Virus genome (UHGV): UHGV-0385696 | DNA length: 5,192 nucleotides | Direction: 5' to 3' (one strand) | From: a virus | Part shown: positions 1-5,192 of the stretch, piece by piece | Position numbering within the stretch: the first letter of the stretch is position 1 | How the letters are laid out: every line of letters starts with the position of its first letter | Notes under the pieces: generated by a model | What the model was told of the DNA's origin: nothing | The model's input: only the letters and a program-made list of their open reading frames with translations | Databases searched by the model: none | Translations under genes and position numbers: made by a program

Positions 1-890
1 TGCTGATTATGAAAATCTGCTATCGTCTTAAGCTGATAACCAGCAGGACGAGGTAAACCAGCCTTATCAAAAGCAGCACCTAACTCACCTTCTCCAATAT
101 ACTGAGGTAAAGAAAGGAAATGATTAAGCGATTCATTACCATACGAAAAAGCCAAAGACAAAGCCTCATATTTAGCCTTATCTTGAAGATACGGCTGAAT
201 AGATTCAGACAACTGAGCAGACAATTCATTAACACGAATCTGAGACGAATGAAGAGCAATAGTCGAATTAGCTAAACTCCGATCAATCGAAATACGAGCA
301 TTATCTACTGCAACCTGATGAGCAAACGACAAATTAAACTGACGAGCATTCTCTTTACGATTAGCATCTGAAATATCTTTCTCAGTCTTATTACGTTCAG
401 TAGCAATATTCTCATTGGACTGAGTCTGAACATCGACATTACGCTCATTAGACTTAGTCTGCATACCTGTAACCTCTTTCTGAGTAGTATTATGAGCTTC
501 AGCAACCTTTTCACTAGACTGAGTCTGCATCTCTGTAACCTCTTTCTGAGCTTGTATCTTATCCTTTTCGAGCATAGCGCCGACAATCGTCTGTACCATC
601 TGTAACACGCCCTGAGTATCAATAGGCGCAGAGTTAGGCGGTTGCGGAGCATTGCCGACTGCAGACTCCATAACGGCACCGCCATGAGCATATACAAGAT
701 TAGGATTCAATCCAGCCGCACGCAAGCGTGCCATCTGAGCAGTAGGGGCATTATAAGCGTTCATTTTATCCTGCATATAATTCATCCTATCCCATTGCTC
801 ATCAGACCTAGCCTGCGCATACTGATTATTAATGAAACCTCCAAGCAAAGAGGCACCAGCTCCAATTATTGCGGGTATAGCGGAAATCAT
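1..890 (-). CDS. VP2: Minor capsid / DNA pilot protein VP2, N-terminal 296 codons. The ATG is at 890-888 and the ORF runs off the left edge of the window. It continues in frame at 5192 if the molecule is circular.
   Basis: Hand translation of the reverse complement gives 296 codons with no stop: MISAIPAIIGAGASLLGGFINNQYAQARSDEQWDRMNYMQDKMNAYNAPTAQMARLRAAGLNPNLVYAHGG... The Gly/Ala-rich N-terminus and the 'AGLNPNLVY' motif are typical of Microviridae VP2 pilot proteins. The gene lies 7 nt downstream of the VP1 stop on the same strand. The supplied ORF track missed it only because no stop occurs inside the window. Confidence 0.8.
   Translation of the reverse strand, partial: MISAIPAIIGAGASLLGGFINNQYAQARSDEQWDRMNYMQDKMNAYNAPTAQMARLRAAGLNPNLVYAHGGAVMESAVGNAPQPPNSAPIDTQGVLQMVQTIVGAMLEKDKIQAQKEVTEMQTQSSEKVAEAHNTTQKEVTGMQTKSNERNVDVQTQSNENIATERNKTEKDISDANRKENARQFNLSFAHQVAVDNARISIDRSLANSTIALHSSQIRVNELSAQLSESIQPYLQDKAKYEALSLAFSYGNESLNHFLSLPQYIGEGELGAAFDKAGLPRPAGYQLKTIADFHNQ
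418..550 (-). repeat. Imperfect direct tandem repeat inside the VP2 coding sequence. Copies are at about 451-484 and 517-550 (31/34 identical, 66 nt apart), with a partial third copy at 418-428.
   Basis: Plus strand 451-484 is gacttagtctgcatacctgtaacctctttctgag and 517-550 is gactgagtctgcatctctgtaacctctttctgag. Both copies are in frame and encode repeated QKEVT(E/G)MQT(Q/K)S(S/N)E(K/R) units in VP2. Confidence 0.75.
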
Positions 891-897
891 AATATCA

Positions 898-2817
898 TCA
901 TCTTAAAACATTACCATCATAACGAGCTAGCGGACGCAATACATCCACATTATTATAAGTAACAGACAATACGTGATTATCTACAGGCTTATCTACAACA
1001 CGCGACAGGGTACGAATATATGTCCAACCTGGAAAACCAAAGGTATATGGAACAGTAACAGTTGAAGAATAAACACCGTAATCAATAAAGAAAGGAAAAA
1101 CCAAATCACCACGAGTAAGATATGAAATCTCAGATAAGCGATAATCTCCTTCTAAAGCCTGACTTTTAGCAACACGACGGAAAACAAGATCTGACGAAGA
1201 ATCTATAAGAAAAGAACCAGCAGTAGACGCATCCTTAACCCTAGAAAGACACGAAAACATAAATCTAAAATCTCCCTGAGAAATATTTGACTGATTAACA
1301 GATATAGACGGCCTAGCTAAAAGATCATCAGATATCCTCTCGACAACTGCTATCGACAAATCATAAGTAAGCGGAGCTTTATCAATATCATATCCTAACT
1401 TAATATGAGCTTTATATAACGCACCGTTAGGTGAAAAACCATCTGGAGCCCAAACATAACCAGCAACAGTCTGCATAGATTCCAAAGTAGTACCTTGAGT
1501 AGTTTCAATATTTGTAGCAGTACCACTAAACCTATAAAGATACAAAGGTTCATCACCGGTAAATGAAAATATACGATTATCGGGATGGCAAGTAACAAAA
1601 TCTACCGATAACTTCTCTTTGGAAATATCGCGCGACAGATGCCAATAATCAAGCGAACGCCTAAAATCTCCAGATACTACATCATTACCATAACGATAAT
1701 CATCATACCTAGGAACATATCCGAAAGCTTCATCTTTAGATCGAGCAACATCAAGTTCACGTCCCTCTATCTCTTGATAACCAAGCGCGGAGAAATGAGG
1801 ATTAAAGAAATCAAAATAAGTCCTACGAGTGAACATCTTAGGACAACCACCGATATTTGACGGACGAGGACGAACAAAATGCAAACCAATAATCAAGCCA
1901 TGTTCATACACATCATACTGAATCTGACCGGTACGATTAACAGACACAGACTTACCATAACTTTCACCAACAGAGCCAAGTTCAGAAGGCGCTGTCTGGT
2001 CTACATCTGAAACATTAAGAACGTAACTATCACCACCTAGATACTTAGGGATCTGTACTCTAGCATCAAGCGGTTCAACTCCAAAGAACTCCTTAATATA
2101 ATTAGCATACTTACCACCAACACGCAAAAGACGCTCACGGAAAGACTGCAAACGCTCAGCTAAACGCATCTCAGGCACAGTAATAGTATTATTACCATCC
2201 ATATCCAACTGAACCATATTACCGTACTGCGTAGAGGTATGAGCGCTAGTAAAGTAATCAAGTCCCTCATTAACATACATCACATTACCAATGTATTTGC
2301 GCAGAGAAGCACTACTAAAATTTTCGGGGCGCAACTGATCAACATAACGTTCATCAAGATCCGACCTCATATAGTAGTGATTATAGATCAGATAATAAGC
2401 TAGTAGGGGAGTAGCATTAAGATCCTTAAGCGCATTAGCAGGATTAACATCATCATTAGATGTAGCAAGTCCAAAATACTCTAGCAAAGGCTTCTCTATA
2501 AAAAGATCCTTAAAGGTCTTGGAACTATACTGTAGATACTTATCCATACCTGGCACAGTCTGACCACTATCAGGATCAGTCAGTATCTGCTCATAGTTAG
2601 GTATCAACAGACGATAAGGCACATAATAGTACCTCTGGAAGTAATCAAGTCTATGCATCAACGGGGATAACATAGGCTGGAGACGTACAAGCGTACTAGA
2701 TTGTACGCGATACTTATCACCGGGAACTACTTCCTGGCAAAGAAATGGGATTAATTGACCCATCTCAAAGCTAGAACGGACTTCATGATCTAGCGAATAC
2801 TTAGTTAGATTTGGCAT
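898..2817 (-). CDS. VP1: Major capsid protein VP1 (phiX174 F-protein homologue), 639 aa.
   Basis: A long intact ORF. Its N-terminus ...FEMGQLIPFLCQEVVPGDKY... matches the conserved Microviridae VP1 N-terminal signature (F.MGQLIP..C.EV.PGD). Start is ATG at 2817-2815 and stop is TGA at 900-898. The gene is tightly packed between the 132-aa ORF (3-nt gap) and VP2 (7-nt gap). Confidence 0.95.
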   Translation of the reverse strand: MPNLTKYSLDHEVRSSFEMGQLIPFLCQEVVPGDKYRVQSSTLVRLQPMLSPLMHRLDYFQRYYYVPYRLLIPNYEQILTDPDSGQTVPGMDKYLQYSSKTFKDLFIEKPLLEYFGLATSNDDVNPANALKDLNATPLLAYYLIYNHYYMRSDLDERYVDQLRPENFSSASLRKYIGNVMYVNEGLDYFTSAHTSTQYGNMVQLDMDGNNTITVPEMRLAERLQSFRERLLRVGGKYANYIKEFFGVEPLDARVQIPKYLGGDSYVLNVSDVDQTAPSELGSVGESYGKSVSVNRTGQIQYDVYEHGLIIGLHFVRPRPSNIGGCPKMFTRRTYFDFFNPHFSALGYQEIEGRELDVARSKDEAFGYVPRYDDYRYGNDVVSGDFRRSLDYWHLSRDISKEKLSVDFVTCHPDNRIFSFTGDEPLYLYRFSGTATNIETTQGTTLESMQTVAGYVWAPDGFSPNGALYKAHIKLGYDIDKAPLTYDLSIAVVERISDDLLARPSISVNQSNISQGDFRFMFSCLSRVKDASTAGSFLIDSSSDLVFRRVAKSQALEGDYRLSEISYLTRGDLVFPFFIDYGVYSSTVTVPYTFGFPGWTYIRTLSRVVDKPVDNHVLSVTYNNVDVLRPLARYDGNVLR

Positions 2818-2820
2818 AGT

Positions 2821-3219
2821 TTATAGATCTTCTATCAGTGAATAATTCAGCAGGCGGGCAAACTCCCAAATGGAGGGCGTCCAACCTTGTTCAACGTGCC
2901 ACATTGAGTAAAGAAGGACAACATACTCAAGGGTAGTATCTATATCCTCATCTTCATTGATCAATTGACCAACAAAGGAGATATAAGCAGCGGTATCGTT
3001 ACCATCTTCTTTCGGTGCCCAATATCGTATTATATCACGAGGTGTTTTTGCATCGTGAAGATTACGATAATTATAGACAAGGAGGAAAGCAGCACGGACA
3101 CCGTACTTCATATCCGAGAACTGACAGAAACCATTCTTAGGCTCTGTTTGACCCTTCCAATTATTAGCAGGGTTATACCGTATATTAAACGGGTTATTTC
3201 TATACTTACAAGTGTTCAT
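2821..3219 (-). CDS. Hypothetical 132-aa protein in the position that gokushovirus VP5 occupies (between Rep and VP1). Function unknown.
   Basis: ATG at 3219-3217 and stop TAA at 2823-2821, 3 nt before the VP1 ATG. It sits 6 nt after the stop of the upstream small ORF. There are no internal stops, and it reads on the same strand and in the same tight packing as the known genes. The sequence MNTCKYRNNPFNIRYNPANNWKGQ...GFCQF...YGVRAAFLLVY has a conserved-looking N-terminal motif and an acidic C-terminal half. I cannot assign it to a family from memory. Confidence 0.6.
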   Translation of the reverse strand: MNTCKYRNNPFNIRYNPANNWKGQTEPKNGFCQFSDMKYGVRAAFLLVYNYRNLHDAKTPRDIIRYWAPKEDGNDTAAYISFVGQLINEDEDIDTTLEYVVLLYSMWHVEQGWTPSIWEFARLLNYSLIEDL

Positions 3220-3225
3220 AGCATA

Positions 3226-3354
3226 TCAGATTAAGAATACAGACCAACCAAAGGAGACCAAAAGCACTCCAATAGCTACAAGTAGCAAAATGATAGGGAT
3301 TCGAAACTTACGCAACTTTGCGAAGAATCCGATTTTAGGTTTGAGAATACTCAT
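3226..3354 (-). CDS. Small cationic single-pass membrane protein of 42 aa, MSILKPKIGFFAKLRKFRIPIILLLVAIGVLLVSFGWSVFLI. It may instead initiate at the upstream ATG at 3432, giving 68 aa and overlapping the Rep 3' end by 77 nt.
   Basis: The ATG at 3354-3352 lies 1 nt after the Rep TAA (sense strand reads TAA-T-ATG). The stop TGA at 3228-3226 lies 6 nt before the next gene's ATG. The basic N-terminal region (K5, K7, K13, R15, K16, R18) is followed by a roughly 24-residue hydrophobic C-terminal helix. The ORF fills the Rep-VP5 gap exactly, on the sense strand. Confidence 0.45.
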   Translation of the reverse strand: MSILKPKIGFFAKLRKFRIPIILLLVAIGVLLVSFGWSVFLI

Positions 3355-3355
3355 A

Positions 3356-4294
3356 TTACAAAGGGGATTTTTTGTTATTAGCGCGGATAGATTTAGACAT
3401 ACGGTCTTGTATGTAGCGCGCATTTTCCACATACTGTTTTACTGTTAGATTAGCGTCAGACGCGATTTCAGATATACGGGCTAATTTAGCCTCAGGCGAT
3501 ATATCGGGGGCAATAGCTTCGCGCCATATCTCTGGCACAAGCTTCTTTAGATAGATACGCGGTAGCGTATAGGAGTGACCTCCGATAGCATAAGTAGGAT
3601 AGGACTCACCTGGTTCGAGGTGATCCCAAAACCAACGGATAAAGGCAGGCTCACGCAGGAGCTGACAGCCTAAACCTTGGCTAGCAACAATGAAACTAAA
3701 CTTTTTCAGATAATACTCAACTATATAACGATGCTGAAGATCTCGATTAGACCATATATGATTAAAGATATAATCTACTGATCGACCGGAAACCTTGACA
3801 TTACGAAACTGCTTAGTAACATACTTAGATAGATAATGTATCCGAGCAGGAGTGACAAAATCACACTGTATATTACCATAAGTCCAAGTATCAGATATTA
3901 GACGGCGCATATCCGTGAGAGTCATAGACTTATCAAGATATAATATCACATGGTAGTGAGGGCGCAAAGACTCATCGCCATACTCGTGACAGAGGAAATA
4001 CCGAACTTTGGCAGGCTGTAACGCCTTACGAAGTCGCTTAAGCCAGCGCTGATAATGATATTTCAAGGGCATTCGCAAGTTTGAGGAACCGTGAAACGGA
4101 AGACCTAACAAGGCTGTATCATTGTACGTAAGAGTACAGAAAAACGCAGATTCTGAATACTGCAATTCAACTGTATTACGGAACATCCAAGACGATCGCT
4201 TATTAGATTGACAAGCGTAACAAGTACCACAGGGCACTTTGATAAATTTTCCCGTCTTTGGATTCAAGACTTGTATTTGATTAACACATAGCAT
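3356..4294 (-). CDS. VP4: Replication initiation protein VP4/Rep, a rolling-circle HUH endonuclease of the phiX174 gpA-like superfamily, 312 aa.
   Basis: The N-terminal Cys cluster (...VPCGTCYACQ) and motif I FFCTLTYND. Motif II (HUH) is LRPHYHVILY. Motif III, the tandem catalytic Tyr, is YLSKYVTK (compare phiX174 A protein YVAKYVNK). Start is ATG at 4294-4292 and stop is TAA at 3358-3356. Confidence 0.95.
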   Translation of the reverse strand: MLCVNQIQVLNPKTGKFIKVPCGTCYACQSNKRSSWMFRNTVELQYSESAFFCTLTYNDTALLGLPFHGSSNLRMPLKYHYQRWLKRLRKALQPAKVRYFLCHEYGDESLRPHYHVILYLDKSMTLTDMRRLISDTWTYGNIQCDFVTPARIHYLSKYVTKQFRNVKVSGRSVDYIFNHIWSNRDLQHRYIVEYYLKKFSFIVASQGLGCQLLREPAFIRWFWDHLEPGESYPTYAIGGHSYTLPRIYLKKLVPEIWREAIAPDISPEAKLARISEIASDANLTVKQYVENARYIQDRMSKSIRANNKKSPL

Positions 4295-4434
4295 TTACTA
4301 GAATGAGTTAAATGTTTAGTTAGAAAACACGCTTTTATAATTTTCAAAGTAGTATCTTCCAACTCTCTAGGACAAATGTACTACAAATTATTTAGACAGA
4401 CAACACACGATACAAATACATCGTGGTGTCACTT

Positions 4435-4466
4435 GGCGATTACATGTCAAGTAATAGGTAATCGCC
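4435..4466. other. Perfect 9-bp inverted repeat, ggcgattac ... gtaatcgcc, separated by a 14-nt spacer. On the sense strand the spacer contains TTGACA.
   Basis: Positions 4435-4443 are the exact reverse complement of 4458-4466. The spacer is atgtcaagtaatag, and its reverse complement includes TTGACA. The element lies about 140 nt upstream of the Rep ATG on the sense strand. Confidence 0.6.
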
Positions 4467-4500
4467 TTTCTCTCTCGTGATAATTAACGGGCGGGGGGGC

Positions 4501-4520
4501 AGTCCGAAGGACTTATTCGG
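4501..4520. other. Small alternative hairpins in the GC island: agtcc-gaa-ggact (4501-4513) and ccgaa-ggactta-ttcgg (4504-4520).
   Basis: Short 5-bp inverted repeats read directly from the sequence. The two foldings are mutually exclusive. They lie immediately next to the G7 tract at 4493-4499. Confidence 0.4.
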
Positions 4521-4526
4521 CTATTG

Positions 4527-4565
4527 CCATTGCCCCCACCTCAAAAGAGGTGAGGGGGGCAATGG
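4527..4565. other. Extended imperfect stem-loop. The stems are ccattg/caatgg (6 bp), cccc/gggg (4 bp) and cacctc/gaggtg (6 bp), with an AAAA loop (TTTT on the sense strand). A GG internal bulge and an A bulge interrupt the stem.
   Basis: Checked base by base on the given strand. Positions 4537-4542 pair with 4547-4552, 4533-4536 with 4554-4557, and 4527-4532 with 4560-4565. The GC content is far above the genome background. Confidence 0.7.
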
Positions 4566-4595
4566 ACAAGCCATCAGCCCCCGCACCCATTAATT

Positions 4596-4898
4596 TCAAT
4601 CGGCTACGGGAGCCGTACCGGTCTCAACTGGCGCAGGAGCATCAACTTGCACCGGCTGAACCTTAGACAATAGATTATCTACATCAGATACCGTCATATG
4701 CCTAAAATCATACTTAGTAATATCTGGAGTGTCTAGAGTGTCCGAAGTGTCCTCAGACAATGATAATCCAACATTAAGCGCTTGACCGTCCATTAACTGC
4801 TTAACAAGTATAGACAGGTCTACAGTCTGATTCGGTAAAGTGTCAGACACTACACTCTGTGGCACACGAGCCACATACTTATAACTTCTCTTTTCCAT
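4596..4898 (-). CDS. Acidic 100-aa protein with a Pro/Ala-rich C-terminus. It is a candidate internal scaffolding protein (VP3-like) on the grounds of synteny and charge.
   Basis: ATG at 4898-4896 and stop TGA at 4598-4596. The sequence MEKRSYKYVARVPQ...SEDTSDTLDTPDITKYDF...VQVDAPAPVETGTAPVAD has acidic residues about twice as frequent as basic ones. The gene sits between VP2 and Rep, where gokushoviruses carry VP3. I do not recognise any sequence similarity from memory. Confidence 0.5.
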   Translation of the reverse strand: MEKRSYKYVARVPQSVVSDTLPNQTVDLSILVKQLMDGQALNVGLSLSEDTSDTLDTPDITKYDFRHMTVSDVDNLLSKVQPVQVDAPAPVETGTAPVAD

Positions 4899-5016
4899 GA
4901 TTATTAAAATTACGAATCTTGCGAATTATACTAAGAGTCAATGTCACAATAACCCAAACAGCACACGCAAAAAAAGCAACCATAACAACATAGGTTAATA
5001 AATCTGCGAAATTCAT
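4879..5016 (-). CDS. Small single-pass membrane protein of 45 aa, MNFADLLTYVVMVAFFACAVWVIVTLTLSIIRKIRNFNNHGKEKL. The ORF track's 66-aa version begins at a GTG at 5079 inside the VP2 3' end.
   Basis: The ATG at 5016-5014 lies 37 nt downstream of the VP2 stop. The stop TAA at 4881-4879 falls after a 20-nt overlap with the following 100-aa ORF (ATGGAAAAGAGAAGTTATAA). The protein has a short N-terminus, a hydrophobic helix of about 25 residues and a basic C-terminal tail (RKIRNFNNHGKEKL). Confidence 0.4.
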   Translation of the reverse strand: MNFADLLTYVVMVAFFACAVWVIVTLTLSIIRKIRNFNNHGKEKL

Positions 5017-5053: not shown

Positions 5054-5192
5054 TCATTTAATAGTAGCAGCTGCAACACCTAACTTAATAGGAGTAGAAG
5101 ACGCATTCCAAAAGGCATTCCAACCAGCATACCAAGCAGCAGCGTCGGCACGCTCAAAATCAGCTTCACCCGTTTTCTTCCACAACTCAAAC
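5054..5192 (-). CDS. VP2: 3' end of an ORF entering from beyond the right edge of the window, with stop TGA at 5056-5054. If the molecule is circular it joins in frame to the VP2 ORF at positions 890-1, giving a VP2 of about 341 aa.
   Basis: The reverse complement of 5057-5191 translates as FELWKKTGEADFERADAAAWYAGWNAFWNASSTPIKLGVAAATIK*. The leftover 'ca' from positions 2-1 plus the complement of 5192 ('g') forms CAG, which is exactly in this open frame. The other two frames hit stops immediately. Confidence 0.6.
   Translation of the reverse strand, partial: FELWKKTGEADFERADAAAWYAGWNAFWNASSTPIKLGVAAATIK

Follow-up and report, generated by a model that had tools for sequence, protein, structure and literature searches.

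The short reading frame that follows the replication initiator gene of this microvirus, here called TM-A, is a genuine gene maintained by purifying selection, and its 42-residue product is predicted to be a cationic protein that spans the membrane once and is anchored there by its C-terminal part. It is encoded immediately ahead of an enzyme predicted to be an Enc34-type endolysin catalytic domain. We tentatively favour, with somewhat less than even confidence, the reading in which TM-A is one membrane component of a multi-gene lysis system of the holin-endolysin type, a role in lysis that we infer, together with the topology of the protein, from its sequence and its gene neighbourhood. The window (the whole stretch of DNA that was analysed, 5192 bases) is one complete circular microvirus genome, since the 342-aa VP2 ORF closes across the two ends once they are joined. 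The minus strand carries all of its substantial ORFs, and along the coding strand the order is VP2, a second small membrane ORF (TM-B), a 100-aa acidic protein, an intergenic region, Rep, TM-A, a 132-aa ORF and VP1, with the following coordinates:

890..1 / 5192..5054, across the ends, minus strand: VP2 pilot protein, 342 aa, an ORF on the joined sequence
4879..5016, minus strand: TM-B, 45 aa, MNFADLLTYVVMVAFFACAVWVIVTLTLSIIRKIRNFNNHGKEKL, with a predicted membrane segment, then a basic tail ...RKIRNFNNHGKEKL, net +4
4898..4596, minus strand: 100-aa acidic protein
4595..4295: intergenic region
3356..4294, minus strand: Rep, the rolling-circle replication initiator and upstream neighbour of TM-A (PF23343, E 2e-18; phrog_942, E 7e-50)
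3352..3358, minus strand: Rep/TM-A junction, made up of the Rep stop TAA (3356-3358), a 1-nt spacer and the TM-A ATG (3352-3354)
3226..3354, minus strand: TM-A, 42 codons, product MSILKPKIGFFAKLRKFRIPIILLLVAIGVLLVSFGWSVFLI, with stop TGA at 3226-3228 and ATG at 3352-3354
2821..3219, minus strand: predicted Enc34-type (PHA02564) endolysin catalytic domain, 132 aa (phrog_873, 7q47, Foldseek)
2817..898, minus strand: VP1 major capsid protein (PF02305)

This temperate virus is a microvirus of the Bacteroidales type and occurs as a prophage in Porphyromonas contigs. An earlier note on this DNA had placed it among the gokushovirus-type microviruses, with no recognised lysis gene, a placement which does not hold given the integrated near-identical genomes and the Enc34-type endolysin domain predicted beside TM-A. 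The near-identical genomes are integrated between a Fimbrillin_C gene and pyrD-type genes in three bacterial contigs, a further near-identical prophage is carried by an assembly labelled "uncultured Porphyromonas sp.", and more distant integrated relatives are found in a Porphyromonas MAG (L024) and in two other long contigs, one of them L016. In the window, the prophage ends correspond to positions 4297-4329, shortly before the Rep start codon, and each prophage junction carries one copy of a duplicated core, ACTAAACATTTAACTCATTCTAG, of about 23 bp. This duplicated core agrees with the dif-like, Xer-dependent integration that has been proposed for Bacteroidetes microviruses (PMC3091885). Relatives were gathered from GenBank phage records, IMG/VR, metagenome contigs, a species-level genome collection and contigs encoding protein matches; the scans of IMG/VR and of metagenomes with Rep and endolysin profiles recovered mostly close relatives and few intermediates.

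That TM-A is a real gene, as the earlier note had argued from its fit into the gene packing, is borne out by these relatives. The ORF is intact in 28 related loci, representing 19 distinct nucleotide sequences, and always has 42 codons except in one lineage at 57% identity, where it has 44; its frame is the only one of the six that is open across all of the genomes examined (10/10). Pooled pN/pS is 0.31 for TM-A, while the flanking genes have 0.19 (Rep) and 0.18 (the gene downstream), with a median dS near 1, and the variable sites at codon positions 1, 2 and 3 number 22, 13 and 34, respectively, an excess at the third position. About 7.5% of the possible single-base changes in TM-A would break the ORF, so that the probability of its having come through 69 or more changes by luck is about 0.005. 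Moreover, when the 136-nt gap was shuffled, only 0.5% of the shuffles contained an ORF that reached 40 aa and included a membrane-like segment. TM-A evolves faster than its flanking genes, with an amino acid identity among relatives of 57-95% as against 83-96%. It is hardly credible that TM-A is an untranslated, conserved spacer ORF whose hydrophobicity is a by-product of T-rich sequence: AT-rich microvirus DNA does give many hydrophobic ORFs in alternative frames, some of them passively conserved (one inside VP1, for example), and the five closest GenBank records leave TM-A unannotated, but TM-A has stayed open in all 19 distinct sequences with no gene overlapping it, its variation shows the low pN/pS and third-position excess given above, its start keeps a fixed distance from the Rep stop, and independent automatic gene callers predict it on metagenome contigs. 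The longer, 68-aa product from an upstream ATG (3226..3432, minus strand), which had been offered as an alternative, has to be given up, because in 7 of 10 relatives the ORF stands in a different frame with respect to Rep and is preceded by a stop codon 7 codons upstream of the ATG.

The location of the gene is as first described, 1 nt past the Rep stop and 6 nt ahead of the next gene (Rep ends at 3356 and the next gene starts at 3219). Spacing between the Rep stop and the TM-A start is 1-2 nt in all relatives, a fixed stop-start junction that suggests translational coupling, and the distance from TM-A to the endolysin gene is 4-7 nt in 28/28 loci. The whole string of Rep, TM-A, endolysin gene and VP1 is tightly packed, with junctions of 1-7 nt, and a scan found no terminator-like or above-chance promoter-like site between these genes, Bacteroidales promoters being outside the models of the tool. 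A stop-codon read-through fusion of TM-A and the endolysin (SAR-like) was considered and rejected: the two are in frame in the window, 6 nt apart, but gaps of 4 or 7 nt occur in 4 of 10 relatives.

The N-terminus with six positive charges was correctly described, as residues 1-20 hold six K/R and zero D/E, and residues 21-42 have a mean Kyte-Doolittle hydropathy of 2.80. The transmembrane helix of 24 residues that had been assigned to the protein stands as a single hydrophobic C-terminal stretch, its length being 22 residues after Pro20 and 24 only when counted from Ile19. AlphaFold2, run on a 16-sequence alignment, predicts a single helix over residues 8-41, the most confident part being residues 21-30 (pLDDT 95). 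TM-A ends inside this hydrophobic helix with no residues beyond it, and all six charges are N-terminal. Invariant among the relatives are 15 positions (M1, K7, G9, F10, F11, R15, R18, P20, L23, L25, V30, F35, G36, W37 and L41). An N-terminal amphipathic segment resembling an antimicrobial peptide was ruled out, the hydrophobic moment being only 0.1-0.2.

Searches against Pfam, PHROGs, NCBIfam and PADLOC gave zero matches to TM-A. A word-indexed profile search of 5.8 billion proteins returned 16 clusters only, of 41-44 aa and all from one clade, and exhaustive HMMER over 1.84 billion cluster representatives returned nothing but TM-A's own cluster, so that by all of these searches TM-A is an orphan family. 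Inside the clade its pairing with the endolysin is universal. In the sister clade (L016, L018, L024) the endolysin is 51-58% identical, the Rep stop overlaps the endolysin start and there is no ORF between them, and two rodent-gut microviruses (L075, L077) show the order Rep-endolysin-VP1, likewise with no ORF between Rep and endolysin. Hence TM-A is not obligatory for this endolysin, and from this distribution it may be an accessory, clade-specific gene.

In more distant genomes the place directly ahead of the endolysin is taken by membrane ORFs of other kinds, one of 61 aa with two segments in L068 and one of 77 aa with three segments in L073. Together with this endolysin, an upstream membrane ORF is present in L068, L073 and L042 and absent from L074-L077 and L017, in a small sample with a high background of hydrophobic ORFs. 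Among distant microviruses that do not have this enzyme, membrane ORFs located in the gap are uncommon, 6 of 10 genomes having none. The sister clade also carries ORFs of TM-A-like layout overprinted inside the endolysin gene (L016, 4155..4268; L024, 2215..2355), which are about 40% identical to each other; hydrophobic ORFs in alternative frames are common.

The gene downstream of TM-A had been listed as an ORF in the VP5 position, a label that its matches replace. Its 132-aa product matches phrog_873 'endolysin' (E 6e-25) and PDB 7q47, the catalytic domain of the phage Enc34 endolysin (E 1.8e-6 by sequence and 2.5e-8 by profile), and the search against Pfam gave no match. For its AlphaFold2 model (pLDDT 85.6), the sole significant PDB neighbour in Foldseek is again 7q47 (TM-score 0.70, E 1e-6). 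The proposed catalytic residues of the Enc34 enzyme are Trp79, Tyr95 and Glu131 (PMC8943055; PMC9502842). W67 (in WAP) and Y79 of the 132-aa protein align with Enc34 W79 and Y95, and E110 lies in a VEQG motif common to the homologues (hydrophobic-E-(N/Q)-G, VEQG/ENG), corresponding to Enc34 E131 by motif and not by residue-level superposition. The protein is predicted from this model and these alignments to be an Enc34-type endolysin catalytic domain, with an all-helical lysozyme-like fold and a Trp-Tyr-Glu groove.

Neither a signal peptide nor a membrane segment was found in this enzyme, the maximum 19-residue hydropathy being about 1.3 (a figure from a homologue). Given that it has no export signal, a membrane-permeabilising partner is required for it to cross the cytoplasmic membrane. 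Tailed-phage homologues are annotated as endolysin, as beta-N-acetylglucosaminidase or as virion/P5-like structural protein, and homologues have also been assayed as endolysins (PMC8943055); by analogy with PM2 P5, which is structural, the enzyme could instead be a virion-associated entry lysin. The catalytic domain family as a whole is repeatedly coupled to membrane modules. In Enc34 ORF39 and M4Lys, a C-terminal two-helix membrane domain is needed for holin-independent toxicity (PMC8943055), in one of the collected loci the catalytic domain is fused to an N-terminal membrane segment, and in five Bacteroidales tailed prophages an enzyme of about 135 aa has multi-pass or spanin-like membrane proteins as its neighbours. 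TM-A would thus be one clade-specific, apparently dispensable solution.

TM-B, the second small membrane ORF, is located between VP2 and the 100-aa gene, and its 3' end runs into the start of the latter. It is present in all of the genomes that cover this junction (20/20), in sequence types that are highly divergent and yet constant in layout; a 35-aa counterpart occurs in the sister clade (L016), and ORFs of similar layout follow VP2 in the distant L042 and L073. It matches the NF037944 holin_2 family only weakly, at E 0.011, the 15.9 bits falling short of the cutoff of 50. Judged by its layout, TM-B looks like a candidate holin of the canonical type and, by textbook criteria, is more holin-like than TM-A. 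The sequence types of TM-A and TM-B assort freely among genomes, with no co-variation signal between them.

In the holin-endolysin-type model that we tentatively favour, ribosomes would translate TM-A along with the rest of the lytic gene string, probably re-initiating at the stop codon of Rep, and the product would be tail-anchored in the cytoplasmic membrane, with its N-terminus cytoplasmic according to the positive-inside rule, residues 21-42 spanning the membrane and nothing exposed to the periplasm. Late in infection or after prophage induction it would build up in the membrane, where it would act together with the adjacent enzyme and probably with TM-B. There it may help to form the lesion that passes the cytosolic endolysin to the murein, as a co-holin, or alternatively it may serve as an accessory protein that times or modulates TM-B. 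Holin genes are classically found in this position, as small membrane genes directly ahead of the endolysin. Support for this location of holin genes is available in the literature (PMC1950889), and in PM2 an endolysin of Enc34-like type (P5) is accompanied by two small lysis factors, P17 and P18 (PMC9502842). We favour the reading of TM-A as a lysis component because it adjoins a signal-less endolysin and because enzymes of this family are found time and again together with membrane segments. Several points weigh on the other side: TM-A has no homologues among holins or in any other family, its charged domain is N-terminal where that of a holin is usually C-terminal, the sister clade as well as L075 and L077 keep the endolysin without it, and at 42 aa it is shorter than any described holin that we know of.

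Among the alternatives, a membrane protein unrelated to lysis, acting in superinfection exclusion or lysogenic conversion or as an anchor for replication or assembly, is unlikely. Such roles would suit a temperate phage that is integrated in Porphyromonas contigs, as well as a family which is restricted to one clade, dispensable in sister lineages and faster in its evolution than the neighbouring genes. However, TM-A lies inside the packed Rep-TM-A-endolysin-VP1 string, and the lack of an above-chance promoter or terminator within that string implies that it is expressed with the lytic genes and not from a repressed prophage; nor did it match any defence or exclusion family in PADLOC.

It is quite unlikely that TM-A is a stand-alone single-gene lysis (Sgl) protein, or amurin, which would inhibit an enzyme of the peptidoglycan-precursor pathway (MraY or MurJ, for instance) and cause autolysis alone. 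The phage genome is indeed very small, and the size and layout of TM-A recall MS2 L (PMC10688784) and the 37-aa LysM (PMC12506998). Its 15 invariant residues, including P20 and F35-G36-W37, suggest sequence-specific contact over a generic hydrophobic plug. TM-A is moreover an orphan, possibly of de novo origin, and many Sgl genes arose de novo. Sgl phages, however, are characteristically without a muralytic enzyme of their own, and here an endolysin is encoded next door; with its own muralytic enzyme the phage does not need an amurin, and what it does need is a way across the cytoplasmic membrane for an enzyme without a signal. A conserved Leu-Ser dipeptide in the hydrophobic domain is the hallmark of MS2 L, and no such dipeptide is present in residues 21-42 in any of the 16-19 variants of TM-A. 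Furthermore, the layout of phiX174 E is reversed, E being overprinted inside another gene, and close relatives survive without TM-A. An amurin is in our view less economical, and less likely, than the holin-endolysin-type reading. Of the lysis factor of amurin or holin-like kind that the earlier note had proposed, the membrane architecture is retained and lysis is still the most plausible role, and it is the stand-alone amurin that is disfavoured, all the more as TM-B is the more holin-like of the two membrane proteins.

More speculative, and improbable in our judgement, is a scenario in which TM-A originated de novo from the spacer between Rep and the endolysin gene and binds or escorts the signal-less enzyme in trans, as the Enc34/M4Lys-type module does in cis. 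The two would make up a two-peptide, holin-independent device for export and lysis, of which the overprinted ORFs of the sister clade would be the analogue. If this were true, lysis in this clade would be multi-gene, in a family that is regarded as single-gene.

We give very little credence to TM-A as a packaging protein of the phiX174 J or gokushovirus VP8 kind, in which the basic N-terminus would neutralise ssDNA and the hydrophobic C-terminus would dock on the capsid interior. Those proteins are likewise tiny, and a basic N-terminus followed by a hydrophobic or aromatic C-terminus is the pattern by which such proteins have been nominated in other small microviruses (PMC9865509); TM-A is also a small gene upstream of the capsid gene block. 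Its 22 L/I/V/F residues, mean hydropathy of 2.8 and confident continuous helix, however, point to a full-length membrane span and not a short aromatic tail, its six basic residues amount to a much lower basic content, and it is missing from sister clades whose capsid and Rep are the same.

How microviruses other than the phiX174 group exit from their host is largely unknown. Putative endolysins (M15 peptidases) had been noted in some microviruses by 2012 (PMC3394797), and the searchable literature yielded no description of a membrane partner for microvirus endolysins. That an endolysin has a small membrane protein for a neighbour is in itself a known arrangement; what is new is to find an orphan 42-aa family in this place in a Porphyromonas microvirus, along with a second small membrane ORF, for which the searchable literature held no prior description. 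TM-A, the predicted Enc34-type endolysin and TM-B make a compact, directly testable three-gene set, and Porphyromonas is a clinically relevant genus for which few phage tools exist. If the set works as proposed, it would mean multi-gene lysis in this Microviridae lineage, and it would offer very small membrane-active peptides together with a lysin active on Bacteroidales cell walls.

To our knowledge, phiX174 E is the only characterised lysis protein of a microvirus. Like TM-A, it is a single-pass membrane protein of the Microviridae with an invariant proline near the membrane boundary, but E, which inhibits MraY, has an N-terminal membrane domain and a C-terminal basic part and is overprinted in gene D, whereas TM-A has the reverse layout, occupies its own spacer and shows no homology to E. 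MS2 L and the L-like proteins of ssRNA phages share with TM-A the basic N-terminal and hydrophobic C-terminal parts and the setting of a very small phage (PMC10688784), but TM-A has about half the length of MS2 L, is not homologous to it and belongs to a genome with an endolysin. Enc34 ORF39 and M4Lys have a membrane module tied to the same catalytic-domain family (PMC8943055), as is proposed for TM-A; in them, two helices are fused in cis at the C-terminus, whereas TM-A has one predicted helix, is encoded by a separate upstream gene and has no sequence similarity to theirs. Holins differ from TM-A in that they have a highly charged hydrophilic C-terminal cytoplasmic domain, which TM-A does not have and TM-B does. 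TM-A has no sequence relationship to any holin family in Pfam, NCBIfam or PHROG and, besides being only 42 aa long, has no conserved dual start and is missing in sister lineages which have retained the endolysin. What TM-A does have in common with the holin cassettes, PM2 P17 being an example, is a small membrane protein with a single predicted segment and one basic cluster, whose gene stands immediately upstream of that of a signal-less endolysin.

The VP2 pilot-protein ORF crosses the ends of the window, which is therefore a complete circular genome without terminal redundancy, and the features of this genome considered first are the following.

1-890 and 5054-5192, minus strand: VP2 pilot-protein ORF, 342 aa, spanning the window ends
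4297-4329: candidate attP core (ACTAAACATTTAACTCATTCTAG), close upstream of Rep, whose ATG is at 4294
4406-4425, minus strand: terminator-like hairpin in the intergenic stretch that follows the 100-aa acidic-protein gene
4879-5016, minus strand: TM-B, a second conserved small membrane ORF, 45 aa

This genome and its relatives are strongly mosaic. Comparison of window 898-2817, which encodes the major capsid protein VP1, and of the VP2 region with L001-L004, L038-L041, and L051-L056 has shown that genomes with ~93% identical Rep and endolysin share either ~68-71% or ~92% identity in VP1, and 42-72% in VP2. Types of TM-A, the 42-aa small membrane ORF between the Rep and endolysin genes, and types of TM-B assort independently among the compared genomes, which points to frequent recombination.

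TM-B carries a membrane segment on its N-terminal side followed by a basic tail with a GKEKL end, and it overlaps the 100-aa gene at the 5' end of that gene. TM-B was found in all 20 genomes covering this junction (20/20), its sequence types being highly divergent, and its match to holin_2 is below threshold. The hairpin at 4406-4425 is the sole terminator-like one, and set against shuffled sequences it is no more frequent than chance.

Integrated copies in L019, L022, L023, and L051, whose host is Porphyromonas, have both ends mapping to 4297-4329 and both carrying the repeat, and the host flanks are not alike between some of these loci; this segment is probably the attP core.

Hydrophobic alternative-frame ORFs were found within two larger genes.

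L016 4155-4268 and L024 2215-2355: ORF with an ATG start in the +1 frame of the endolysin gene, 37 and 46 aa
Window 2160-2276, minus strand, L016 4952-5173, and L024 2993-3226: hydrophobic ORF inside VP1 (…IWFSWIWMVIILLLCLRCV)

The ORF embedded in the endolysin gene of L016 and L024, members of the sister clade without TM-A, shares the TM-A layout of a basic N-terminus and hydrophobic C-terminus, and may be an overprinted TM-A analogue or else an artefact of composition. Its two versions are only ~40% identical, and in the window clade the same +1 frame is interrupted or has no ATG. The VP1-internal ORF, kept across these clades and treated as a passive by-product, served as a cautionary control for claims of overprinting.

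Two forms of the enzyme itself were recorded.

Window 2821-3219, minus strand: Enc34-type (PHA02564) endolysin catalytic domain, with W67, Y79, and E110 conserved
L026 5863-6384: version with an N-terminal membrane segment (MNKRDDILVILGVAALGTAAYMLY...), 173 aa

The former is the ORF that the earlier note had placed at the "VP5 position," and in the closest GenBank records it is either without annotation or named "hypothetical." The L026 version, on a contig whose Mycobacteriaceae label is probably a binning error, has an architecture that reads as SAR-like. In Bacteroidales tailed prophages, two proteins come after an enzyme of the window's type (L035 2173-3396; L036 5977-7200; L037 5974-7119), the first with a membrane segment at its N-terminus and a coiled-coil-like region, the second with a lipoprotein-type signal (…TSC/ACS) and a membrane segment at its C-terminus, and they resemble either two paired spanin-like proteins or a unimolecular spanin.
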